From the NCBI GenBank assembly GCA_010093705.1, contig MU006103.1, positions 434,001 to 480,220 on the forward strand: a stretch of DNA of 46,220 bases. The letters are read 5' to 3'. The stretch is from Patellaria atrata CBS 101060. Taxonomy: Eukaryota. Positions 2-14,594 of the stretch are shown here, in pieces (within the stretch, counting starts at the first letter, position 1; each line of letters starts with the position of its first letter). The notes below the pieces were generated by a model that was given only the letters and a program-made list of their open reading frames with translations, did not search any database and was not told where the DNA came from. A program made the position numbers and the translations under genes.

Positions 2-1153
2 CGTGTTCGCCTTATAGATCCCTCTGGGAGATCCCCTGACATCGAACCAGCACAACCAGAGGTATCCTTGAAAATGGTCTCGCCGCCCGTAGTTAAGGAT
101 CATGCTGACGGTACAACCAATGTTACTTTTATCTGCCAGTGGGATTCCAGCATGCATGGTTCGCTTTTGCTTGACCGTACAACCGCGGAGAAGTATAGGG
201 TCAGCGTTAGTCTCATCTGGGACGTGATATGTGCGAAACTCAGCAGACCGATGGTCTTCTCGCTCGATCTCGCCACCCAAATCCGCTCGCGAGCATATAT
301 ACGGCCGACCTCGATGTTTATGCAGTTATGGAACGCTACAAGAGTCGTGCATTCCACCGTTGGAAACTTCTCAGTAGCCGTCCGCCCGACTTCCGCGAAA
401 CGAGCCAGCGACCTCTGGCGAATGAACACACAAAATGACTACATCAAAGGCGAAGAGAATCTGAGCGGCTGGACACCTCGAGGGATCTCTCTAGTAAAAG
501 ACTTCATCGCTGCTCGCAAACGCCGGCGGCGTATTGCAGAGATCGAAACCGCTCGTAGCGTCCTCAGCTCTCGTACCCTCACCTTGAACCCAACGTCTCC
601 ATCCATCTCTTCCGAAAAGCTCACTGAGCAGCAAGAAGCGCTTCTCCGTCGTGTTCTAGATCTCTGGAAACCAAACAAAGACATCAGCACCACGATTCTC
701 GCAAAGCAGAACACCGAACCCCCAACAAACGGCGCCGCGTTCGCTCCCAACCCTACCATCAACGGCTCATCTGCGCCTACCCTAATCGCAGAAGTCCGCT
801 TCATACCTAAAAATCCCTCTCTCCTAAAGGGCGGGTATCTCATGACACCCGACGACACGGCAACGCGGTGGGTGCGACGCTACGTCGAACTTCGTCGGCC
901 GTACCTACATATCTACTCCGTCCCGGAAGGAGATGAACTGAACGCAGTCAATCTGGCAAACTCTCGGATCGACCATCAGCCCCAGATCGCGAAGCTACTG
1001 AGGAGAAATAATAGTAATGTGTTTGCGGTGTATGCACCGCAAAATACATATCTGTTTGCCGCGAGGACGGAAAGAGATAAGGTCGAGTGGATTTTAAAGA
1101 TTGATCAGAGTTATTTTAGTAGTGGGGGGACTACGCCGGATGAAGGGGACTAA
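2..1153 (+). CDS. Kinesin-3 (Unc104/KIF1-like) C-terminal part with PH domain; 5'-truncated by the window edge
   Basis: Frame is open from base 2 (RVRLIDPSG...). It carries the kinesin-3 tail motifs WDSSMHGSLLLDR and YIKGEENLSGWTPRGISLV, and a C-terminal PH domain (KGGYL...WVRRYVELRRPYLHIYS...FAVYAPQNTYLFAARTERDKVEWILKID). Stop TAA ends at 1153. Confidence 0.9.
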   Translation, partial: RVRLIDPSGRSPDIEPAQPEVSLKMVSPPVVKDHADGTTNVTFICQWDSSMHGSLLLDRTTAEKYRVSVSLIWDVICAKLSRPMVFSLDLATQIRSRAYIRPTSMFMQLWNATRVVHSTVGNFSVAVRPTSAKRASDLWRMNTQNDYIKGEENLSGWTPRGISLVKDFIAARKRRRRIAEIETARSVLSSRTLTLNPTSPSISSEKLTEQQEALLRRVLDLWKPNKDISTTILAKQNTEPPTNGAAFAPNPTINGSSAPTLIAEVRFIPKNPSLLKGGYLMTPDDTATRWVRRYVELRRPYLHIYSVPEGDELNAVNLANSRIDHQPQIAKLLRRNNSNVFAVYAPQNTYLFAARTERDKVEWILKIDQSYFSSGGTTPDEGD

Positions 1154-3857: not shown

Positions 3858-6310
3858 CTTGCCGATTGTATGGAACGCTTGCCGTACGGTAGAACGGATT
3901 GAGTTTGTTAGAGAGTAGAAGATATGATGTGGTAATTTCGGGAAGGTGGTGAGGTGGAGTAGGTCCGTGATGTGTAGAAGGCTAGAAGGATAACGGTGGG
4001 GGGTGAGAGTTTCTACAGTAACTTACAAGTGCACCTTACCCCAGACACAGGCCCCTTACCCCGCAACGGGCGGGGCCCCACAGCTTTTCCACCTTAGCTT
4101 TAGGTTGGATCTGAGCCTTCGGACTTTCAACACACAATATTACCTACACAACATCAAAACCGCCACCACCACCCAAAATAATAATACTGCGGCGTGGGAT
4201 TCCATCTCCTCTTATCAAGTTTTCGAACCTAACCAGTCTACACTCTTCATCCTAAGGTATCTCCTCGGTACATGCCCTTATCGATAGAGCAGGCCGCATC
4301 GCCCATTGTTGAGTACAGACGCTGTTTATCCCCACTGGCGAGTTATAGCATCTCGCTGAAACATTTGTAAATTCCAGACCTACGGCTCTTCAACAACTGA
4401 CCAGAGCATTTCGAACAGAATATCAGGTCTGACTAGATGCCGGTCATAGCTGTGTCAAACGTAAAGCATTCGACTCCATTCTATAGCAGAGATCAACAAC
4501 GACAAAAAAGCACAAGCTGTTCAAACAATGCTTTGTCGAAAAACTTAACTCGATCTTTTTGTCTAATGTGTGTCAACTGCTCCAGAGCGAGGATGGAAGA
4601 AGAAAACATGAGCTAGGCGGCCAGCTCCGACTTTCAATGGTACTCTCTACCAGAATATCATTCGTTCAGTCGTTCTACCTAGCACAGTGTATACTGTGCC
4701 AGTGGGAATTACTGATAGCATACAGACAAAGTAGGTAAATCTAGGCGAAGACATCTCTCCACCAAAGTTACCAACATACGGCCGTTCTGCCGGTACCTTT
4801 TTAATTTAATTTTAGCATGAGGCTAGCCGGGCATTCCCATCTGCGAATCTTATACCAACAGTGACGCTCGTGGGATGAAAAGAGCGAAATTGAGTTTATC
4901 ACTCGCAGCAAAGTCTTATGTGCCTGCGATATCAAGCTAGCGCTGTAACAGTTATACTGACACCTGATATCATAGTAATCCTTTATAGGAAATAATGGTG
5001 CAGCCTCCCTAGAAGCATGTCCAATCCCCTCTTGCAGCACATGCACACAAACGCCGTGAAACGGTTTGGCATACAAGGATCATTAAGCTCCTGCTGTACA
5101 AAACATCTACCTGTGATCTACTGTACAGTACCTATCCTGCTGGCATATCGCATGGCAAGTTCCTTTCTCTCTTACTGTGCCTCCAGTTTTACCTTTTCCA
5201 TTAAGGTCCCAAAGTCTTCCAAGCTGGCACAGATATGCTCGCTCTCTTTCTATTCTAGCTCAAGTCGGACTCCCAAGCTCTCTAGCCAACTCTTGGTACT
5301 GCATAGTCGAAGCTCTTTATACTTGGGATGGTCGTAGACATTCTATAGAGACCCGGGAGATACATGCTTCATGTGGAAGGTAAGTGATTCGATCATGTCT
5401 GTGCGGCCTACTTTACGCCGTGTATTTGCCCCGAGGTCCATGACATCGGATTCGAGGTTTCAAACTCGTCCGGAACCGAAATTCAAGAACATCTTGAAAA
5501 TCATTACTATGATATATCATACCTACGGGAGGATTATGTTTTTGTACTACCTTCTATCAGCTTATGACGAAATGATTAGAGTGATCAGTTACTCCAGCGG
5601 AAAGGTAATCGGTGTATGTTTCATCTGCGCTCGTGGTTTTTGGGTCCAGGCTATTAACGATCTATTCTGCTCTAAGTTAGTCCAATCTTTCGAAATACAG
5701 CTATTCAAGTTTCTATATCATTATGCAAGGGTCCATACTTTTTCTCTTGGAAATGGTTCTAGCTGCAACTAGAACTACACTGCAAACTGGGTGTAAAATG
5801 CAAAGAGCGTGGGTCTTTCTGAGCTACCGGACTCAGCTTTACACTATGGCACGGATATTTCAGTTACACATACCACTGAAAACCTGGAGCATGACTGATT
5901 TCCCCGAAATCTGGAAAGGCAATATCTCGGTCTCATCGCATTCAGAGTTTGATGGTTCATGGTGGACTATTCGGTGAATAGGGAATTACATACAACAGCT
6001 CTTGTGTCCTGCCAAAGTTGGATACGATACCTTATGATTTGCAGATCGCCACTACGGAAGCGGCTGTATATGCATCGCAGGCGGAAGCAGGGACAGAGTC
6101 TTGGTAGCGATACCAGTTCCCTCATGATAAAGTTCTGGAATCCTATTCGAGGTTAAATATTTCATCTGCATGACCGCCGAGATATCCATCCAGCTCATGT
6201 GTCACCGTATTATGACTTTGCAAATAGTCTTGTTGTCTATAAAAGACCTGGATGCCTAGGACAAAAGATGAGTTTAGGATTTCCAAATTCAAACTTTAAG
6301 AACAAAGAAC

Positions 6311-7216
6311 ATGCAACTCAAATATTTTCTTCTCTCTACTCTTCTTGGTGGAGCCGCTAGGGCCGCCTTGAATGAGCCATGTTACGGATCAGGAGGCAGA
6401 GCTGGTACATTCCTATCCAACACCTATGATTTCCAAGTCTTTCTCGCAATGACATAATAACTAATATGCCACAGGTGTCTGCGTTACGACAACTACTTGT
6501 TCTTCAGGCGGTGGTGTAACTATCAACGGTGGTTGTCCAAGTGATCCAGCGAACGTAAAGTGCTGTAGCAAAGCTTCTTGTGGTGCCAGCCCCGGAAACT
6601 GTCGCTGGACCAGCGATTGTGGCGGCAGCTCCGTATCTAACCTCTGCCCTGGACCTGCTGGCTTCAAATGTTGCCAGTCGACTGCTACTGGTTTTGGAGG
6701 GTACGGTGCTCCAGCCATTCCGGCCGTCGGTGGTTGCAAAGCAGTAGCCGTCGATGGCGCTAGGAAGATTGTCAATGCCTGGCCTGGCCGTATCAGGCAA
6801 ATCTACTGCACACGTGACTGCGCGTGCGGAAGTGGCTCTGACCATTGCTGTGGTAAAGCTACTGATATGATGTGCTCCGATGCTGGAGGTGTAAGTCTAT
6901 ATCAATTAGGTTTACTCTTGAATATTTGATTAGGGACTAATATACTGTATAGACTCCGACTATCTCAGGTCGTCAAATTGCCGAATGGGTTATGAACAAC
7001 AGAGGTACTCTTAACCTCAAGTATGTAATTTGGGGCCAGCGTATCTGGAACCCTTCCCAGGATGCCGTGGCTCCATGGACTTCTTGGCGCGGTATGGAGG
7101 ATAGAGGGGACGTTACTCAGAACCATTGGTAAGTTCCCAACTGGTACATTTCCTTGTGACTTCGTGGTAGTCTAATATCCAAATCTAGGGACCACGTCCA
7201 CGTGAGCTACAACTAA
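6311..7216 (+). CDS. Secreted Cys-rich protein (237 aa): signal peptide, two 6-Cys modules and a C-terminal LAS/M15-like Zn-peptidase domain (Sip/VldE/ARB_07466-like)
   Basis: Exons 6311-6404, 6475-6890, 6953-7128 and 7189-7216 join in frame (714 nt) through three GT..AG introns, each with a CTAAY branch point. N-terminus MQLKYFLLSTLLGGAARA is a signal peptide. Motifs SDHCCGKATD (H-x6-D), KYVIWGQRIW and MEDRGDVTQNHWDHVHVSYN (HxH). TATAAAA lies at ~6238. Confidence 0.9.
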
Positions 7217-10200
7217 GCTCAACGGCCTAAATCAGGACGGCAAAAGGCAAGCCATGGACTGGACTGAATGGTTGACGATAGCCTTTCAACGGAGGACTGT
7301 ACGGTGAAAACCGATATAGACTCACTACGCTCGTTGCCACAGAACAGATTCACAATCCATAGGTTACGACTCTGTGGGGCTGAACTTTCCTTTCTCTCGT
7401 CTTCTTGAAAATTGAATATAGCAACGTAGTCACGGCCAATACAATAGTATATCTACAGAGAAGTCTTGATTCTTCCACCAACGTTAGTCGGTGATTAACC
7501 ACAAAATATGGAGGTATAGATGTACAGGGTTATCTAAGTAGTCAGCTATTTTGTATGAATCGATCAACTGTCTTTCAAAAACATTTACTTGGTGTTACGA
7601 CATATGTGAACAACAGTGACGATTTTATAATCCAATTGAATAAGGTATAATAGAGAGAACTGTAGGAGATGTCTGGGAAGCAGGAGGTATATAGTGCAAT
7701 GAGGTCTGTATAAGCTTTCACTCACCATCAAGGTCCTCCGGCTCTTCAGAATCATTCCGTTTTGGTATTCATCACCCATCGGGTGTGTGATCAGTAAGAT
7801 CAATTTATGAGTATGGTTATAATGGATACTGTTCGAAGTCTGAAATTGACATAGCATCAACATATAAAAGGTATGTATATGTGGAAGGGATAGTTACACT
7901 CGCGGTTGAGAGTGCGATGATCGTGTATCAGCAAACAGACAGCAATCAGTGAAGAGGTATGTACTGGCAATATTAATCATTGTAACTGTTCGCTTTTAAA
8001 CTTTTGAACTTTCCAATCCCTAGCCCCTATTCCAGTGAGGGTGTGAAAGAAATTTGGTCTGAAGATGGGGGCTTGTCAATGTGTGCATGTATTAAGACTT
8101 AGAAGTCTTCTCCGTCTCACAGCTCAAGCACTACTTCTCTACAAGTGACTCTGGTAATTACTGTGTTCATTCAGGAGAGCGCCCTGTAATTCACAGGAAG
8201 TAGCCAGCCGAAAGTTATGCCAGTACTCCTCGCGAGGTTGATGAGACAAATAGATACTCATGGAATAGGACATCGTCTGAGTGAGAGCACCCACCCCTTC
8301 ATTCGCAATGCGTGGTGATGGACCAGTTGATGCCTATCTCGACTTGTTAGTGGAGTGTTGAGACAAGTTGTTCCGTGCTTCACTGGAAAACCTTAAACTC
8401 ACATGTTCTATAGACTCGTGAGGAGGCTCGTGTTGGACTTTATCTTGCTTCGATGGACCCCCTCTTGCAGAGCCGCTTGTAGATAGCTCTACCTTTGTAG
8501 AGAGACAGCTTTCCTAAGACCGGTTTGCTAGTGTCAAAAGCTCGCTATCCCGTCCAAGGAAGTAGGGGGTCGTTACTCACGCAACCAGATTGGCGTGTCT
8601 GGAATTCATCACGGTTGTCCTCATGTCCCATCACCTTCCCCCTTTCTCCCTTAGTCGACGGAGTGGCACTTTTGTTGTTCATTCCTTCAATTAGGGGATA
8701 CAGCTTGAGGTGTCAAAGTCCAGAGTATCAGCAACACGTCCGGATAGAGATATTAACCTGGGAAGATAATACACCCTCCCAATAATTTGCCACTCGAAGT
8801 CCATAGAGTCACGCATACGTGGATATGGTTCTGGGTTGGAGCTTATTCACAATACCTCCAGCGATGGAGTATTCAGATTGACACTTCATGCATGGCTAGC
8901 TCTTACTTTGTGGCGAGATTACCTTCGACTCGGGAATCTTGCAAGCTTTCCACCGGCTTTCTGTTTCTAGTCAACGATACCGAGCATCAGAAAAGAGCAA
9001 CCGCAAGCAGCTCGCCGACATTGCTTCGACCTGAAGAACCGGCATCAATGATGCATCTTCTTGCTCGCGAAGAGATCCAGTGGGCGATGAGGCAGTGTCA
9101 CATCTCATTATGCCACCTCATTTGTCCATTTTCATAGTTTCCGTCTTAGGAGGTCCGCGGTTCCCTTCTACGCCTCGCGATGTTTTATGCACACCGCTAT
9201 ATTGACGAGACATTGTACTTAAAGGTCAAGAACACTATTCGCTGAGAGAAAATGGCGATAATCCTCATTCTCAAATTAGTGGCAACATTTTATATTAGGG
9301 CAGAGCTCGATTTCCAGCTGCAGTTACTGCAAAACATGTCTCAAAATATAGTCCCCTTGCTCAATGCTGCATACCATCCTGGTGCTCGGTTGAGCTTGAG
9401 AGATAAACGAGGATCTATTCTTTCTTAGTATTCAAATACATCTATAAGAGTAAGCGAAAAAAGGCAATCAACTTGGAGACGAATACCGTGGTTAGGAAGC
9501 AACTGAAGACTAATTAATTTCTGCTAGACAGATAGAACAGCTTTGACAATCAATCGCTAATTGGTATAGTATAAACCTCGTCACGTAAGCTGCGAGAGAT
9601 GGTAGAAAATGAAGATGTGATACATCATACGCGGGAAACATACAAGGCGCATTCAAACGCGAACCGTTTGCCTCATTCTTGAGAGAAGTGTTTCGCCACC
9701 GACTTGGACTTGGACAAGGATATGTCCTGAGATATTTTCTGACGGAAAGGTTTCAGAAGCAAATGTAAAGAGACTCTTTGTACAGAGAGGTTATTGACCT
9801 TATTCTTTGCTCCCTTAACTTATCGATAGCATCCCGATCATACTCGTAGAATAGTTGATGTTAATAACAAATTCGGCCGTATCATGAGGATATATTCTCA
9901 TATACGGACTATTTCTACCTCAGCCTTGAGTTATCAAGATAAGGATCAAGCAGCACGAGGTGCCTTATGGATTGTCGGGAGTGCACGTGGAGAACTTGTG
10001 TTAGGTTACTGTCCTCTGTTATGTACGGATTATAATCTCAATGTGTCGTTCTAGGACTAGAACTGGTTCTAACCAGTTCAGGCAGACACTTGGACCATTC
10101 AACGTCAGCTCCACGGCAGTTTCCAAGAGCATCATATCACGTTGAACAGATCCTTCACTTGCTTTCTCATACAATCATATATCCATGTGCACATTATCAA

Positions 10201-11440
10201 TATTACATACTCCTCTATCTGCTTGACCTGATTTTGTCTGATCGTACTGCACATCACCGTTTCTCCGTTACTGGTACCTCTCTCCCCACAAGGCTTAAGG
10301 GTACTTCCTAGAGTGGCGAGATCTCTGCCCGAATGGCTTCCTCAGGACTTCTCATCCGCTTTACGGTTGGCGGATGGGAGGATGTTAATCACGTTAAAAG
10401 GTTCCTCTTTAGGTTTCTGCTGTCTCCAAACTTTCATCTGTATTCATTCTGTCAGCTCCCCGTTGATCATTCCGCCCATGGTACAACGGGTGTCCTGGAC
10501 TAACTTGAAAGCTTTCTTTTTTTATGCTGTTTTTCCCTTCTGTATATCCTTCACTTGCTCCTTGATGAGCACCTCTATCCTCTTTCGCTCCCTTAGCTTC
10601 TGTACCAGCCATATTCAAAGTGGACCCTAGTGAGCTGTTCAGACCCATCAGCACATGTGAGAGTTGTTGGATATTCCAATCCAGTAATATAAATAACAAT
10701 GGGGTCGACTTACTCAGGTTGAAGTAGGTGCGTTTTCGGGCAATACTAGCGTAGATCGACGGCGAATAAACCAGCATAGCTCGGAAAGAGGAAAAACTCA
10801 GCTTTTATACGATCTCTTTGGTGTCCCATTTGTTTTTCTATACCTTCACGTATACTTCATCTTACACCAAATGGCATTGGTGAAGAATTTTGTGGCTGTC
10901 TCGTCCAAGCGCATACGTTCCGCAAGCTCTATTTCACATCGTTTGGGATGTCTTTGTGGAATGCGAAAAGTTTGCACGTACACGGCCACCGCGGGTATGA
11001 GACACTGGTCCTTAGTAGGAGACAGGGATCAAGTATGCGTTATGGTAATTTTGGGATAATGTTGACCTATTCAACATATTACCGCTAAGAACGTCTCACC
11101 GGGACCACGTACTGTACACTCCAATACTGGTCTTCAGCTGTACGACCTTTGGGTTGTTGGTCCCGCCTAAGTCGGAGAGGACGAACCGAACCCCAAAGGC
11201 CTTAAGAAACTGGGGTAGGAGGCGACAATGAATCCGGTTTGGCTTGTTCCCCATCCGAATTCCTCACCCTCATCAAGCATCGCGTCAGGTTGGTCAAGGG
11301 ATTATATCATACCGAGGTCCGAAGTCCGATCTTCCCGAAATGTGACTTCTATCTTGTCGTTAAATCTACTGATCATTGTGAGAGATAAGTACGTTTTACG
11401 AATGCTAGAGTCCGACGGTCGCTGTTGATTCCTCTTATGA

Positions 11441-11473
11441 TAGATTTCAGTGTCAGCTTGACTCTGAAATCTA
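11441..11473. repeat. Short near-perfect inverted repeat (15-bp arms, 3-nt loop)
   Basis: TAGATTTCAGTGTCA-GCT-TGACTCTGAAATCTA, one mismatch between the arms. Confidence 0.6.
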
Positions 11474-13905
11474 CATCATTGAAAGAAGGTTGGTTGTCTA
11501 TGCCGTGGCATGTTGAAAAGAAATGCTCAGTAATACTTGAGTTCCTTCCTCCCTATCTTTCTCATAAGCATAGGGTGCCACCATATCCGTGAACAAGGGG
11601 CAATACAAGTTTCACGGTCAATGGATATCAACCCTTAAACTCACCCGAAAGAATCATTAATCGCAAGCACCGTTGAACGACTTAGCGAGAAATATTCTCA
11701 ATATGCTCCCACACCAAGTTCCACTTACTATTCGGCTTGACACATGATCATATCAAAACTTGGTGTAGTGTCAGTTAAAGTCCGCTCAACCAATCTCATT
11801 CACTAGTTGCGAGAAGCAACGTAATCCACGTTTCATAAATTTCGGGAAACTATCTCTTATCCTCTTCGGCGCTAAATGACTTTCCATAATACGATTTCTT
11901 AAGACATCTCTTAGTATAAGGTTTCCGCGAGGACTGTTCTACCAATTCCCCAGGTCATAGAGTAAAAGCGTCTTATTGTAGGAAGCTAAAGACTAGCAAG
12001 AATACGTTCTACTCGACAGCACACCAACGAGTCTATGTCGGACATTCTAGGTCAGTCAGCCCCTTATCGAACACCGTGGTACCATCTTAACTGAGGGACT
12101 CAGCGCTTAAGAATCTAAGCTGTCACGAGCATGCTCATGGGTGGTATTTATCAGTCTAAGCTTCCGACAGCAACAAGTGTGCTACAGAGGCGCAAATTTC
12201 AGCTGGTAACGAATACTTAACTGGAATTTGTTGTAGAAAACAGGTAGGGTTCCTCGCTGTTGGTAGTGTGGCTGCTCCCATATGTGTTGTGTGGTTGCTG
12301 ATTGTAATGGTTTAATACCATGTAAGGTAATTAGGTATTCAGTCTTCCTTGCAAACGACTCTGGTGTTGAACTAGCCGAAAAGGTCGCTGTGGACTGTTG
12401 TACCACGTCCTGATCGTGCCTCGTGCTCTCAAAAGGATGCACCGTAATCATAATACTCAGCTTCTAAATAATCTCAATAGGACCCGAGGGATCAAGACCT
12501 CTTTGTGAAAAAAATCTATCGTGTTAAGATATCTAGATTGGGCATCAGGTTTGTGGCATCAAACGATCTAACGCGGTCTAACTATAGCAAGGCTAACGAG
12601 AAGACAGCATGCCAAGTTGATGCCTTAACGCCAGACGCCACAATCCATATTCCATCAATCTCTTCTTCAATTATGCGGAGATTGAATCTCTCGAGGCTTC
12701 GTCGATGATCTTGAGCAGTTTCGCAACCTTCATTTTTCCGGACAACTCTGCTCGCACCAGGACTCAGGACCTGAGCCTAGGACCCATTGTGAAAGGTGAT
12801 AAGCTTTGATGAATCCATTCATGGAAGCAACAGCAAAATGTGACATGTCAGAAATCCTGAGCCGTGGACACTCAAGGTCTGCTGTACAACAACCCCTTAC
12901 TCGAAGCTAACGGGCACAACTGATGAGTGTACGACCATCGTGAGTATTGAAAAATTCACACGAGCCCAATAAACAAATGTTCAACCCAATATCACCAGGA
13001 ATGCGTTAGCCAATATGATAGGCAAGATGTCAAGGACCCAATTTCCGAATTGGACTATGTCAGAATCGCTTTCCGATATATTTTAACGCCCATCGTAACC
13101 TATCAGCAAGATGATTTAGTGGGACTCTCGGAGTCATATTACCTTCGTCGCTGTATCAATAGCAAGGAAGTGTCCTTCTTTCGGGAGCTGGTATCGGCTG
13201 CTGTCTGTCCTCTATTAATGGATCGAAGTGGATACACATCTTTACAATAAGTGAATACAGGAAGGCTTTTTAGACCATGTTTCACCAAAGTTGTTCAAAT
13301 AACATATCATGAAGGATCTCCAAGTTGGAACATTACTATGATTCATCGTCTAGTCTATAAGTTTAGGATATTTCACTAGCTGACCCCTCAAACATCTATC
13401 TCCTAGTTGAAATCACACATTATATGGAGACCAACCGGTAAGAGAGCACTATTACTCTTATTTTGAAACACTAGACCATTTCATTTTCGCTAGTCATCGC
13501 TTTCAGCTGTCGGCACTATCTTCCCCTTCGCCAGGGTACTTAGCCTACAGTGTGTTTCCATATAGAGGACATCTGACCTGAACTGTACATGCACGTAAGA
13601 CTTAGCATAGATAGAATTCAACTACACATCATTAATATATTCTGAGCGTACGAAAAGTCCGGGAGTCGCCAACTGGATCCAAAGAATGAATAATAGCGCC
13701 CAAACCCACAGGTAAGTCCAAAGCCCACCTTCCTTCCCCATGATGAGTAAGATACACCCTTAACAATTAGAACCTCTCACCTCAGAAAATGTTATTCGTC
13801 AAACCCACCACCTCTAGCACGTCTCCCGCCTCCAGGAACTCCCAACATCAAGCTTCACAACGACAGAGCACGGCACCGCTCACCCGTCTAAAGACAGGCC
13901 TAGAT

Positions 13906-13974
13906 GCAGAGACCCGTCAGAGGCAAAGATCCGCCCAGCCGCAGAGACCCGTAAGACGCAAAGACCCGTCGAAC
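13906..13974 (+). repeat. Degenerate minisatellite, four units of 17-18 bp
   Basis: GCAGAGACCCGTCAGAG / GCAAAGATCCGCCCAGCC / GCAGAGACCCGTAAGAC / GCAAAGACCCGTCGAAC, starting at 13906, 13923, 13941 and 13958. Confidence 0.6.
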
Positions 13975-14594
13975 GACTCGGGCGTCAAGCTGTCACAGAA
14001 GGAAATACCCCGTCAACCTGAATACGCAAATTTAATCTCATCCCTCAAACCTTAACCTAGACCGGCAAACCCTGGATCTCCCTTAACACACCCTAGAAAG
14101 GGGGGCGGATACATACCTACATGTGTGATTAGACAACATATATACACGCTGCCCTAACTCTGCTTGTCATTTCTTCAGTATCAGCTTCTTTCATCGCCAA
14201 TGGAAGGGTTCGTAAATTTTTATGACATGGGGTAGTGAGTTTCTAAGGCAGTCTTCTGTGATCACACCACCCTTCCTTTTATCTAAGTAATTGGAAAAAA
14301 CGAGATCGGACTTCCTATTTGCTTCTTCCACTTCAGTGTACAGCCCCTTACTATACCATCAAGAGCCGCAACAGTAGGCCCCATATACGCACGTTAGAAT
14401 CAAGTAGAACATTCAAGTGATAGCCAACATAGAGACATTCAATTCGATTTAAACTCACATAACCCTCCAATCAATCGCCCTTTCGGCCGCGGAGCAAATC
14501 CACAGCGGCACACCAAGAAACTAACCTACATTTTCCCGAGCTCATATCAACACCATTGACAATCCTCGACTGGGTCTGATACAATGCTGTTCGC

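Follow-up and report, generated by a model that had tools for sequence, protein, structure and literature searches.

The plus-strand interval from 6311 to 7216 of the window (the whole 46,220-nucleotide stretch of Patellaria atrata CBS 101060 DNA that was analyzed) raises the question of whether a genuine fungal gene lies here and, if so, what a fungus would do with a bacterial-type zinc peptidase. A sequence-only reading had proposed four exons, absent from a list of open reading frames, that splice into a 237-residue secreted enzyme acting on bacterial cell walls. The features that we assigned to the locus are as follows.

6238..6245 (+), putative TATA-like box TATAAAAG, read directly, 66 nt 5′ of the ATG
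6311..6404 (+), exon 1, 94 nt, residues 1-31 plus base 1 of codon 32, junction GCTG/gtacat
6311-6364 (+), putative signal peptide within exon 1, residues 1-18, judged by eye
6368..6674 (+), 12-Cys N-terminal module, residues ~20-98, its first cysteine (C24) in exon 1, containing intron 1
6405..6474 (+), intron 1, 70 nt, GTACAT..AG, CTAAT 10 nt before the 3′ splice site, GC 0.37
6475..6890 (+), exon 2, 416 nt, residues 32-170, most of the 12-Cys module, the connector, and the first half of the peptidase
6699..7213 (+), predicted LAS zinc-peptidase domain of the VldE/MT3 type, residues ~107-237, containing introns 2 and 3
6843-6845 and 6864-6866 (+), codons of H155 and D162, in exon 2
6891..6952 (+), intron 2, 62 nt, GTAAGT..AG, CTAAT 12 nt before the 3′ splice site, GC 0.27
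6953..7128 (+), exon 3, 176 nt, residues 171-228 plus two bases of the W229 codon; motifs YVIWGQRIW and MEDRGDVTQNH; R221, T225, and H228 (7124-7126)
7129..7188 (+), intron 3, 60 nt, GTAAGT..AG, CTAAT 13 nt before the 3′ splice site
7189..7216 (+), exon 4, 28 nt, last base of the W229 codon, D230 (7190-7192), H231 (7193-7195), H233 (7199-7201), the end ...VSYN, and the stop

The spliced frame comprises 714 nt (237 codons plus a stop) and runs from the ATG at 6311 to the TAA at 7214-7216 on the plus strand. All three introns are bounded by GT..AG, and the predicted product is identical at 237 of 237 residues to a public protein (P0051), which bears out the proposed four-exon splicing; the C-terminal sequence quoted in the sequence-only reading is the one encoded by exons 2-4. 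The introns are poorer in GC than the exons (0.27-0.40 versus 0.53), and each carries the branch-like site CTAAT 10-13 nt before its 3′ splice site. When intron 3 is retained, the frame stops at TAA 7130-7132, after ...NHW, and the HxH motif is lost. Junctions 2 and 3 are crossed by a colinear phmmer alignment with the intron-less bacterial protein VldE, and junction 1 is crossed by an alignment of the spliced product with a fungal GH24 protein. The gene had been described as hidden. It is indeed missed by the bacterial-style list of open reading frames, which shows only the fragments 6278-6457, 6465-6929, and 6953-7132, each unspliced piece running into a stop, but the identical 237-residue protein was already present in NCBI and UniRef.

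The neighboring genes (kinesin, SUI1, tubulin, myosin I, Sin3, and others) are ordinary eukaryotic ones, so the locus is not bacterial contamination. Two sequencing runs, from one sample and one study, contain the stretch; both are genomic, their contigs of 21-24 kb span it without joints and may be where this DNA comes from, and they provide no RNA reads over the junctions. Searches with exon 2 yielded 194 matches at E <= 0.001 among 205 candidate proteins of similar length and 48 matches among 358 longer candidates, which excludes a chance open reading frame. Among the matches listed, identity to exon 2 reaches 79-81% in the closest homologues. Members of the family are found in saprobes, lichen fungi, dermatophytes, plant pathogens, and some basidiomycetes; the homologue in Podospora anserina is P0072. 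These data confirm a real four-exon fungal gene, one ordinary and already annotated member of its family. As for the export of its product, the N terminus has a lysine (K4), a hydrophobic core, and A-R-A at residues 16-18, all read by eye only, and residues 1-20 are modeled at a pLDDT of 51-58; secretion, as had been proposed, is plausible.

Which enzyme family does the C-terminal half belong to? As judged from sequence comparison and a predicted model, residues ~107-237 are a LAS-fold peptidase of the VldE/MT3 type (MEROPS clan MD) that would bind zinc. PF26571 ("ARB-07466-like C-terminal domain") is precomputed on P0051. A phmmer search of P0051 against PDB sequences matched two VldE sequences only (6 entries), the best match being a VldE crystal chain (E 2.7e-15; residues 149-237 against chain positions 44-128) with which the DH..D and NHxDHVHVS motifs line up. 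Our Pfam scan of the exon pieces and P0051, run with a Pfam copy that does not hold the PF26571 model, gave no family at E <= 1; VanY reached E 0.031 on one fused homologue, its 14.5 bits falling short of the cut-off of 25 for a profile match. The AF2 model (pLDDT 91.4, pTM 0.87) was compared with known structures, residues 107/118..237 of this predicted fold aligning to LAS proteins. The top five Foldseek hits were all entries for the VldE C-terminal domain (E 2.7e-8 to 3.3e-6, target TM 0.78-0.80), followed at E > 0.2 by the LAS proteins Ply500, hedgehog, LdcB/DacB, ChiX, and LysB4. VIA-align, run against 48,161 chains, likewise placed VldE first (Z 13.4, rmsd 2.1 Å, 101 residues, 34% identity), with Ply500 (6.8), the Streptomyces DD-peptidase 1lbu (6.6), hedgehog (6.5), and DacB (6.2) as runners-up and LysB4 (Z 5.5), T5 endolysin (5.1), and MepA (5.0) lower. 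VldE had been named as a relative in the sequence-only reading and is the best solved match by both sequence and structure; ARB_07466 of Trichophyton benhamiae, named there as well, is a family member (P0037) with 54% identity to exon 2. The LAS fold that had been proposed is thus the one that the predicted model matches, and the H-x6-D plus HxH zinc signature is present as H155-x6-D162 and H231-x-H233.

The alignment extends to the active site. The Zn-1 ligands of VldE (H301, D308, and H375) align to H155, D162, and H233, and its essential MT3 residues H370, D372, and H373 align to H228, D230, and H231 in the sequence NHWDHVHVS. In VldE (Spr1875) of Streptococcus pneumoniae, alanine at any one of these six positions abolishes wall lysis (PMC11667670). 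All six occur together in 72 of the 96 aligned fungal homologues, 16 being gapped and 8 substituted; H155 and D162 are invariant (96/96), and H233 is found in 74 (13 gaps). The VldE residues M310, T367, and R363 have M164, T225, and R221 as their aligned counterparts, whereas A and V stand opposite K350 and Y351, with which VldE reads the free carboxylate of the acceptor-strand L-Lys (PMC11667670). The lid residue of the four-zinc "zipper" closed state, E368 (PMC11667670), is replaced by Q226, and the four-zinc lid feature is absent. With K350/Y351 and E368 replaced, specificity and regulation may differ from those of VldE. TQNH is the consensus both in the fungal set and in 12 aligned relatives that lack the N-terminal module, and on this alignment the zipper lid belongs to VldE itself and is not a family trait. 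R145, a candidate counterpart of the transition-state arginine R294 of VldE, is kept in 95/96 homologues but lies 10 residues before the histidine, compared to 7 for R294. The fungal domain has six conserved cysteines, none of them in VldE.

Ahead of the peptidase, directly after the putative signal peptide, lies a module of 12 cysteines (C24 to C98). These form two units with the spacings C-x9-C-x5-C-x11-C-x8-CC and C-x6-C-x5-C-x8-C-x7-CC, and alignment of unit 1 with unit 2 scored 64, compared to 9.6 +/- 9.1 for shuffles. Each cysteine is kept in 92-96 of 96 homologues, and a conserved connector in exon 2 (GFGGY.AP.IPAVG) joins the module to the peptidase. The separate nature of this half, which is common to other fungal lysins, had been missed by the sequence-only reading. 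The module is 56% identical to the N terminus of an Amanita GH24 lysozyme, and GH24 (PF00959) replaces PF26571 in 7/48 of the longer matches. When 32 module-only proteins were scanned, GH24 was found in P0252, NlpC/P60 in P0302 (9e-11), and PF18013, the phage tail lysozyme, behind the module in P0219 and P0297; 27 of the 32 were without any Pfam family. The module also precedes a 3D domain at two loci in bacterial metagenome-assembled genomes (MAGs), and it occurs as free-standing proteins of 106-124 aa in Chaetomium and Serendipita. Taken together, the identified partners of either the module or the peptidase domain are LysM, M23, SLT, PG_binding_1, GH24, NlpC/P60, and 3D, all of them peptidoglycan-related.

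The spacing C...C...C...C...CC of the units fits the beta-defensin pattern. A fold search of the 48,161 chains with the module of a homologue gave 9 chains at Z >= 2 (only 2.1-2.8), and these weak matches all belong to the beta-defensin/clip fold class (clip domains, hBD4, big defensin, helianthamide, and anemone toxins); the best Foldseek match was hBD1, also weak (E 3.8), and an ESM Atlas search with residues 20-100 gave no usable match. We also considered whether the module might be the CWBD of Moroz et al. (an SH3-like domain for binding cell walls), and dropped this candidate because the cysteine patterns differ (12 versus 4); no SH3 chains were among the listed fold matches in the searches with the homologue's module. 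Compared through primer-encoded motifs and layout, the module appears to be the "defensin-like" domain of the bacteria-induced Coprinopsis lysozymes: the motifs C-I-T-T-S-D-C-S and T-G-L-C-P encoded by the DLP1/LYS1 primers fit its consensus GVCxxTxxCS / GLCPGP. Since the partners of the module are all active on peptidoglycan, the module probably serves to bring the enzyme to the bacterial envelope or to stabilize it there. Coprinopsis LYS2 stripped of its Cys-rich domain showed no loss of lysis in vitro (PMC6461984), so this targeting role is tentative.

Further relatives of the peptidase were sought in several ways. A tblastn search returned 522 phage records, all from actinobacteriophages; the matches listed lie under tape-measure genes, the best with 38% identity over residues 115-237 (E 1e-9). 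A word-index search of longer proteins with residues 110-237 recovered only 4 fused fungal gene models, and a related-locus search with the fungal alignment, which carries fungus-specific Cys patterns, recovered only 3 loci. A tree of 121 peptidase domains set 46/46 fungal and 15 module-less rows apart from 51/51 actinobacterial and 9 other rows, a split with an SH-aLRT of only 59 and flagged long branches. As a reconstruction from sequence, the tree fits one fungal clade and shows neither donor nor direction of transfer. It is conceivable, and we put it forward tentatively, that the ARB_07466 family represents widespread fungal "defensin-lysin" chimeras, in which an actinobacterial or phage-type peptidase was taken up and joined to beta-defensin/clip-like 6-Cys units, the module serving, across kingdoms, as a means of access to the bacterial envelope. 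In this chimera reading, the module would be joined to five or more unrelated domains that cleave peptidoglycan, in bacteria as well as in fungi, and it might be antimicrobial alone. The beta-defensin/clip-like fold class is regarded as confined to animals.

What, then, would the enzyme do? Fungi have no peptidoglycan, so the target would be bacterial wall material, belonging either to living competitors or to dead cells that serve as food. From the sequence, the model, and the analogy with VldE, we think it likely that the product is secreted and is directed against bacteria as an endopeptidase of peptidoglycan stem peptides. After removal of the signal peptide, the protein would consist of two tandem 6-Cys units ahead of a single-zinc LAS-fold metallopeptidase. 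If it works as VldE does, Zn2+ would be held by H155, D162, and H233, H231 would place the attacking water, H228 and D230 would also be required, and the cleft would be framed by R221, with M164, T225, and H231 forming a pocket for the L-Ala methyl group. The substrate would be the bacterial peptidoglycan stem and the bond most likely L-Ala/D-iGlu(Gln). The sequence-only reading had the enzyme cutting cross-links; VldE does act on cross-linked peptides, but the bond that it cuts is L-Ala/D-iGlu of the acceptor stem and not the cross-link. We infer an antibacterial role.

An enzyme with another peptidoglycan specificity, either a D-Ala-D-Ala carboxypeptidase or a cross-bridge or mDAP-type endopeptidase, is unlikely. 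Several homologues are automatically named "D-alanyl-D-alanine carboxypeptidase" in NCBI, DD- and LD-carboxypeptidases are among the clan relatives (Z 4-6.6), the L-Lys carboxylate readers of VldE are not conserved, and one fused homologue gave the faint VanY match (E 0.031). VldE is, however, by far the nearest characterized relative (Z 13.4 versus <= 6.8) and shows no carboxypeptidase activity on the substrates tested (PMC11667670), P0051 has no Pfam VanY or M15 match at E <= 1, and M164, T225, and H231 of the L-Ala pocket are all retained. Rather improbable as well is a protein that binds or trims soluble peptidoglycan fragments, whether for sensing, feeding, or removal of immune-active muropeptides in pathogenic relatives, or as a silent hedgehog-like binder. 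The joint presence of the six catalytic residues in 72/96 homologues argues for catalysis, and other partners of the module are true lysins (GH24, NlpC/P60). Such a role would fit the weak, regulated remodeling activity of VldE, which acts on cross-linked stems only (PMC11667670), the LAS fold of the hedgehog N-domain, which is not known as a wall lysin, and the spread of the family across fungi as different as saprobes, lichen fungi, dermatophytes, and plant pathogens.

We attach little weight to a substrate other than peptidoglycan, such as a protein of the fungal wall or a peptide with D-amino acids: the six conserved cysteines absent from VldE speak for divergence from the bacterial form, but the characterized relatives, close or distant, all work on peptidoglycan peptides except hedgehog, and the identified partners of either module are all peptidoglycan-related. 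Least credible is a non-working gene, be it mis-modeled, a contaminant, or a decaying locus. The genomic nature of both sequencing runs, with no RNA run among those containing the stretch, leaves some room for it; against it stand an intact frame with canonical splice signals, catalytic residues and 12 module cysteines that are all kept, listed homologues reaching 79-81% identity with exon 2, and eukaryotic housekeeping genes on both flanks.

Fungi secrete glycan-cutting lysozymes (GH24, GH25, and GH184) against bacteria. In the literature that we searched, we found no description of a peptide-cutting partner enzyme for them, no paper on this fungal family, and none containing the name ARB_07466. 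The VldE structure and assay, dating from December 2024, turn the preferred reading, an endopeptidase acting on peptidoglycan stem peptides, into a concrete, testable biochemical prediction for the fungal family, and the 12-Cys module offers a handle for walking to further fungal and bacterial wall-degrading enzymes. If active, the family would be a candidate source of lytic enzymes and a possible factor in the fungal shaping of surrounding bacterial communities. For the window itself, the result is modest.

Among known systems, the closest is the C-terminal MT3 domain of VldE (PDB 9flh, 9flj, 9flk, 9fll, 9flm, and 9fln), with which the predicted fungal domain has the LAS fold, the six essential residues, and the motifs in common. 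Within cross-linked stems, VldE cuts the L-Ala/D-iGlu bond of the acceptor strand (PMC11667670). VldE, a bacterial autolysin, carries LysM at its N terminus and has a long, disordered linker, whereas the fungal protein has introns in its gene, the 12-Cys module, and a short conserved connector. The Introduction of the VldE paper names MT3 as the founding motif (PMC11667670), and the domain family is shared with the tape measures of TM4-type actinobacteriophages; phage MT3 sits inside a very long virion protein, while the fungal domain is predicted to be part of a free secreted enzyme. The M15-type L-alanoyl-D-glutamate peptidases Ply500, T5 EndoT5, and LysB4 have the LAS fold and the H/D/H zinc triad in common with it (Z 5.1-6.8). 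The bond cut by these phage endolysins is probably the same, but their identity with the fungal domain is only 14-18%, and P0051 has no Pfam M15/VanY match. ARB_07466 of T. benhamiae belongs to the same family, has the same two-module layout, and differs in nothing of substance.

For the N-terminal half, the nearest counterparts are LYS1-5 and DLP1-10 of Coprinopsis cinerea, in which a 12-Cys domain precedes a peptidoglycan hydrolase or stands free, the same layouts as those of the fungal module described here. The 12-Cys GH24 lysozymes and the free DLPs are bacteria-induced and secreted (PMC6461984), the free DLPs being secreted proteins of ~100 aa (Kombrink et al. 2019, PMC6461984), and LYS1-3 lyse Gram-positive cells (PMC6461984). 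The Coprinopsis LYS catalytic domain is a GH24 muramidase that cuts glycan, whereas the one here is predicted to be a peptide-cutting metallopeptidase. Fungal CWBD-GH24/GH184 muramidases are likewise secreted and combine a small N-terminal accessory module with a peptidoglycan-cleaving domain (PMC10394673), and the CWBD module is common to several catalytic types (Moroz et al. 2023, PMC10394673). Its 73 aa form an SH3-like domain, which has two disulfides and binds cells of M. lysodeikticus (PMC10394673), in contrast to the 12 cysteines in two 6-Cys units of the module encoded here.

The gene is made up of four exons on the forward strand:

6311-7216, + strand: gene, four exons, 714 nt in total (237 codons plus TAA)
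6238-6245: TATAAAAG box
6311-6404, + strand: exon 1
6475-6890, + strand: exon 2
6953-7128, + strand: exon 3
7189-7216, + strand: exon 4, the last, 28 nt

The three introns (70, 62 and 60 nt) all run GT..AG, carry a CTAAT branch-like site 10-13 nt 5' of the acceptor, and have a GC content of 0.27-0.40 versus 0.53 in the exons. A mechanical ORF list of the window shows the gene as fragments only; read-through of any intron meets a stop, and with intron 3 unspliced the protein ends ...NHW and loses the HxH motif. After splicing, the product matches a public protein, P0051, at 237/237 residues, which bears out the exon model and protein sequence of the sequence-only reading. The gene is not hidden, as had been claimed, because the same protein was already in public annotation, with the UniRef name "ARB-07466-like C-terminal domain-containing protein" and the domain PF26571. 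Outside this gene, the window's long ORFs code for unremarkable eukaryotic proteins (kinesin, SUI1, DJ-1/PfpI, tubulin, aldehyde dehydrogenase, calreticulin family, OPA3, myosin I, GH3 and Sin3, among others), and the locus is therefore fungal chromosome, not contamination. Downstream of the gene, window 7300-14500 (~7 kb, GC 0.38-0.50) holds only short ORFs (<=132 aa), four of which were scanned and gave no Pfam family; the first clear gene beyond it encodes a tubulin (minus strand, ~14.6-16.1 kb).

When P0051 was compared with all PDB sequences, the sole matches were two C-terminal-domain sequences, covering six entries, of VldE, the cell-wall L,D-endopeptidase of S. pneumoniae. The alignment (E 2.7e-15) places residues 149-237 on chain positions 44-128 with one gap of 4 residues, setting DHCCGKATD over DHGKGLAID and NHWDHVHVS over NHYDHVHVS. 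With an AlphaFold2 model built on 96 family sequences (mean pLDDT 91.4, pTM 0.87), VldE entries filled the top five Foldseek places (E 2.7e-8 to 3.3e-6, target TM 0.78-0.80); Ply500, hedgehog N-domains, LdcB/DacB, ChiX and LysB4 came next, at E > 0.2. Such VldE and LAS-type matches had been anticipated by the sequence-only reading, which proposed a bacterial-type peptidoglycan zinc peptidase. VIA-align of the model against 48,161 representative chains also put VldE at the top (Z 13.4, rmsd 2.1 Å over 101 residues at 34% identity; residues 118-237 of the model on VldE 269-379), and the next LAS members, at Z 5.0-6.8, were Ply500, the Streptomyces DD-peptidase 1lbu, hedgehog, DacB, LysB4, T5 endolysin and MepA.

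According to the accessible text of the VldE paper (PMC11667670), the MT3 domain of VldE has a LAS fold of clan MD, its catalytic zinc is bound by H301, D308 and H375, and Ala at any of these or at H370, D372 or H373 abolishes wall lysis. That text gives the substrate as the L-Ala/D-Glu bond on the acceptor strand of cross-linked stems only, with no carboxypeptidase, amidase or transglycosylase activity shown by VldE, and the terms 'fungi', 'fungal' and 'eukaryot' do not occur in it. The corresponding residues are as follows.

Residues of VldE, their roles and their counterparts in the window's protein
H301, D308, H375: Zn-1 ligands; H155, D162, H233 here
H370, D372, H373: essential MT3 residues; H228, D230, H231 here
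R363: cleft framing; R221 here
M310, T367: L-Ala methyl pocket; M164, T225 here
E368: lid of the four-zinc state; Q226 here
K350, Y351: L-Lys carboxylate reading; A, V here

R145, compared with VldE R294, is kept in 95/96 aligned homologues, yet stands three residues out of register. Loss of K350/Y351 suggests that the third residue or cross-link may be read differently than in VldE, and loss of E368 that the four-zinc resting state of VldE may be unused here. All six catalytic residues occur together in 72/96 aligned fungal proteins; 16 have gaps and 8 have substitutions, at C-terminal positions. We note that the C-terminal D-H-x-H motif is absent or garbled in 24/96 public homologue models (e.g., P0035, P0027, P0023, P0026, P0032, P0061, P0092 and P0138), where the very short last exon (28 nt here) was likely overlooked; such models would wrongly appear catalytically dead. 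The fungal domain also has extra cysteines, C119, C143, C147, C149, C156 and C157 (kept in 94-96/96) and C165 (in only 84/96), none of which is present in VldE.

Relatives of the peptidase were found in phages and bacteria. A tblastn search of 50,697 phage records gave 522 matches, all from actinobacteriophages (grouped by the opening word of the organism name, chiefly Mycobacterium, 267; Gordonia, 190; Streptomyces, 46; and Corynebacterium, 13), the best over residues 115-237 (38% identity, E 1e-9). The 15 phage matches listed fall under tape-measure genes, some of which carry the label endolysin or hypothetical protein; a phage tape-measure motif, MT3, gave the VldE domain its name, as the available part of its description states (PMC11667670). 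Among prokaryotes, a profile from relatives lacking the Cys module, run on one genome per species, confirmed at least 589 stretches among 605 candidates; the best 80 of these, judged by titles, are all Actinomycetota, with 32-50% identity (median 40) to the window's peptidase domain. Pfam scans of 24 module-less or atypical relatives found LysM (P0263), peptidase M23 (P0269, P0303), SLT (P0303) and PG_binding_1 (P0286) as partners, and no Pfam family in the other 20. A quick tree of 121 domains separated all 46 fungal and 15 module-less rows, including P0223 of Paracoccidioides, from all 51 actinobacterial rows and 9 others with an SH-aLRT of only 59, which is compatible with one fungal clade and proves no donor.

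The window's gene is one typical, already annotated member of a fungal family. Searches with exon 2 gave 194 matches at E <= 0.001 among 205 candidates of similar length, with PF26571 in all 120 listed, and 48 among 358 longer candidates (40 with PF26571, 7 with GH24, PF00959, instead and 1 without a precomputed family). Kinship to Trichophyton ARB_07466, put forward in the sequence-only reading, was confirmed at 54% identity (P0037). An exhaustive HMMER search of 1.84 billion representatives returned 2610 proteins at E <= 0.001, of which 425 reached <= 1e-10 and 47 reached <= 1e-30. Named sources are Dothideomycetes, Sordariomycetes, Eurotiomycetes, lichen-forming fungi and some Basidiomycota (Collybia, Tulasnella, Serendipita). 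P0052, from the basidiomycete Collybia nuda, ranks among the closest relatives (79% identity to exon 2) and is nearer than most ascomycete members, which may reflect patchy distribution or fungus-to-fungus transfer. Several gene models (P0007, P0010 and P0319, 664-688 aa; P0005, 427 aa) fuse the family domain to another enzyme, an M24 Xaa-Pro aminopeptidase in Chaetomiaceae or a methyltransferase in one Colletotrichum; these are probably adjoining genes merged by the predictor, not real fusions. An 895-bp contig filed under Pandoraea sp. (L001, coverage 0.88) encodes a fungal-type member (59% identity, residues 1-154 including the Cys module) and looks like fungal DNA within a bacterial assembly.

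Residues ~20-98 contain 12 cysteines in two units, C-x9-C-x5-C-x11-C-x8-CC and C-x6-C-x5-C-x8-C-x7-CC, which align with all six cysteines paired (score 64 versus 9.6 +/- 9.1 in 500 shuffles). Single units form long tandem arrays in P0297 (541 aa), P0219 (1179 aa) and P0253 (761 aa), from JGI metagenome contigs of 1.6-3.8 kb, and these arrays show that the repeating building block is the 6-Cys unit. By local phmmer, 308 stored relatives sorted into 204 with both modules, 52 with the Cys module only and 52 with the peptidase only. An Amanita thiersii protein has an N-terminus 56% identical to the module, followed by a GH24 lysozyme at residues 116-248. Among 32 module-only proteins scanned, GH24 was found in one (P0252, Lobaria), NlpC/P60 in one above cut-off (P0302, Westerdykella, 9e-11) and two below it (P0043, P0219), PF18013 phage tail lysozyme behind the unit arrays of the metagenomic P0219 and P0297, and no Pfam family in 27. 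Chaetomium globosum and Serendipita have free-standing modules of 106-124 aa. Two contigs, L002 (246.7 kb) and L003 (18.9 kb), which are filed as bacterial MAGs, encode lipoprotein-like proteins with the two-unit module and then a 3D domain, PF06725 (L002:1486-2502, +; L003:928-2313, +); the MAG-protein module shares 36% identity with that of the window (pairwise E 5e-7), and a polysaccharide deacetylase gene lies upstream in L002. The module thus extends beyond fungi. Our main argument that it belongs to peptidoglycan business is that every identified partner acts on peptidoglycan. The connector between the modules (window 6617-6700; residues 99-117; GFGGY.AP.IPAVG) has block-mean pLDDT of 91-97 (pTM 0.87), and G104, G106, G107, Y108, P111, P114 and G117 are conserved in >= 90% of 96 homologues. 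Judged from model and conservation, it is not a loose linker, and it may fix the relative placement of the two modules or touch the active-site cleft.

The fold of the module was modelled on a natural homologue, P0296 (85 aa, just two units, 52% identity over residues 19-98; pLDDT 91.0). Foldseek with this model gave no match at E <= 0.001, the weak top rows being human beta-defensins 1 and 2 (E 3.8-7). VIA-align gave 9/48,161 chains at Z >= 2, with Z of only 2.1-2.8 and covering unit 1 only; all have a beta-defensin-type fold (Grass and PAP2 clip domains, helianthamide, human beta-defensin 4, oyster big defensin and three sea-anemone toxins). The cysteine spacing fits the beta-defensin pattern. 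A beta-defensin-type fold is thus a consistent lead from modelling, short of demonstration. The Cys module is probably distinct from the wall-binding, SH3-like domain in Moroz et al. 2023 (PMC10394673), which in the accessible text has 73 residues and two disulfides.

Taken together, these data describe what is probably a peptidoglycan peptidase directed at bacterial walls. A signal peptide, predicted by eye, would be cleaved after A-R-A at residues 16-18 (residues 1-20 of the model have pLDDT < 60), and the disulfide-rich two-module protein would then be secreted. The Cys module may aid in reaching or staying on bacterial envelopes, and the stem peptide would be cut by the LAS domain, using a single zinc on H155/D162/H233 and water activated through H231. 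Since the L-Ala pocket is kept, L-Ala/D-iGlx would be the most likely bond, an assignment that we hold tentatively, at just short of an even chance; a targeting role for the module is held with less assurance still.

The Cys module has very probably been described already, as the defensin-like domain of Coprinopsis cinerea. The available text of Kombrink et al. 2019 (PMC6461984) reports ten "defensin-like peptides" of ~100 aa with 12 conserved Cys, and five GH24 lysozymes bearing this domain at their N-terminus. Several of these DLP/LYS proteins are bacteria-induced and present in the secretome, LYS1-3 lyse Gram-positive cells, and LYS2 lacking the defensin-like domain lyses as well as the full-length protein. 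The printed primers for DLP1 and LYS1, on which alone our comparison was made, encode motifs fitting the module consensus. Open-access searches (ARB_07466, VldE, fungal D-alanyl-D-alanine carboxypeptidase effectors, Ascomycota peptidoglycan endopeptidases) found no paper on the fungal family, and a subscription paper may be missed. Nothing in that literature describes an enzyme family, widespread among fungi, that joins the MT3 peptidase to the DLP module; each of these parts is known separately, as are fungal antibacterial lysins.
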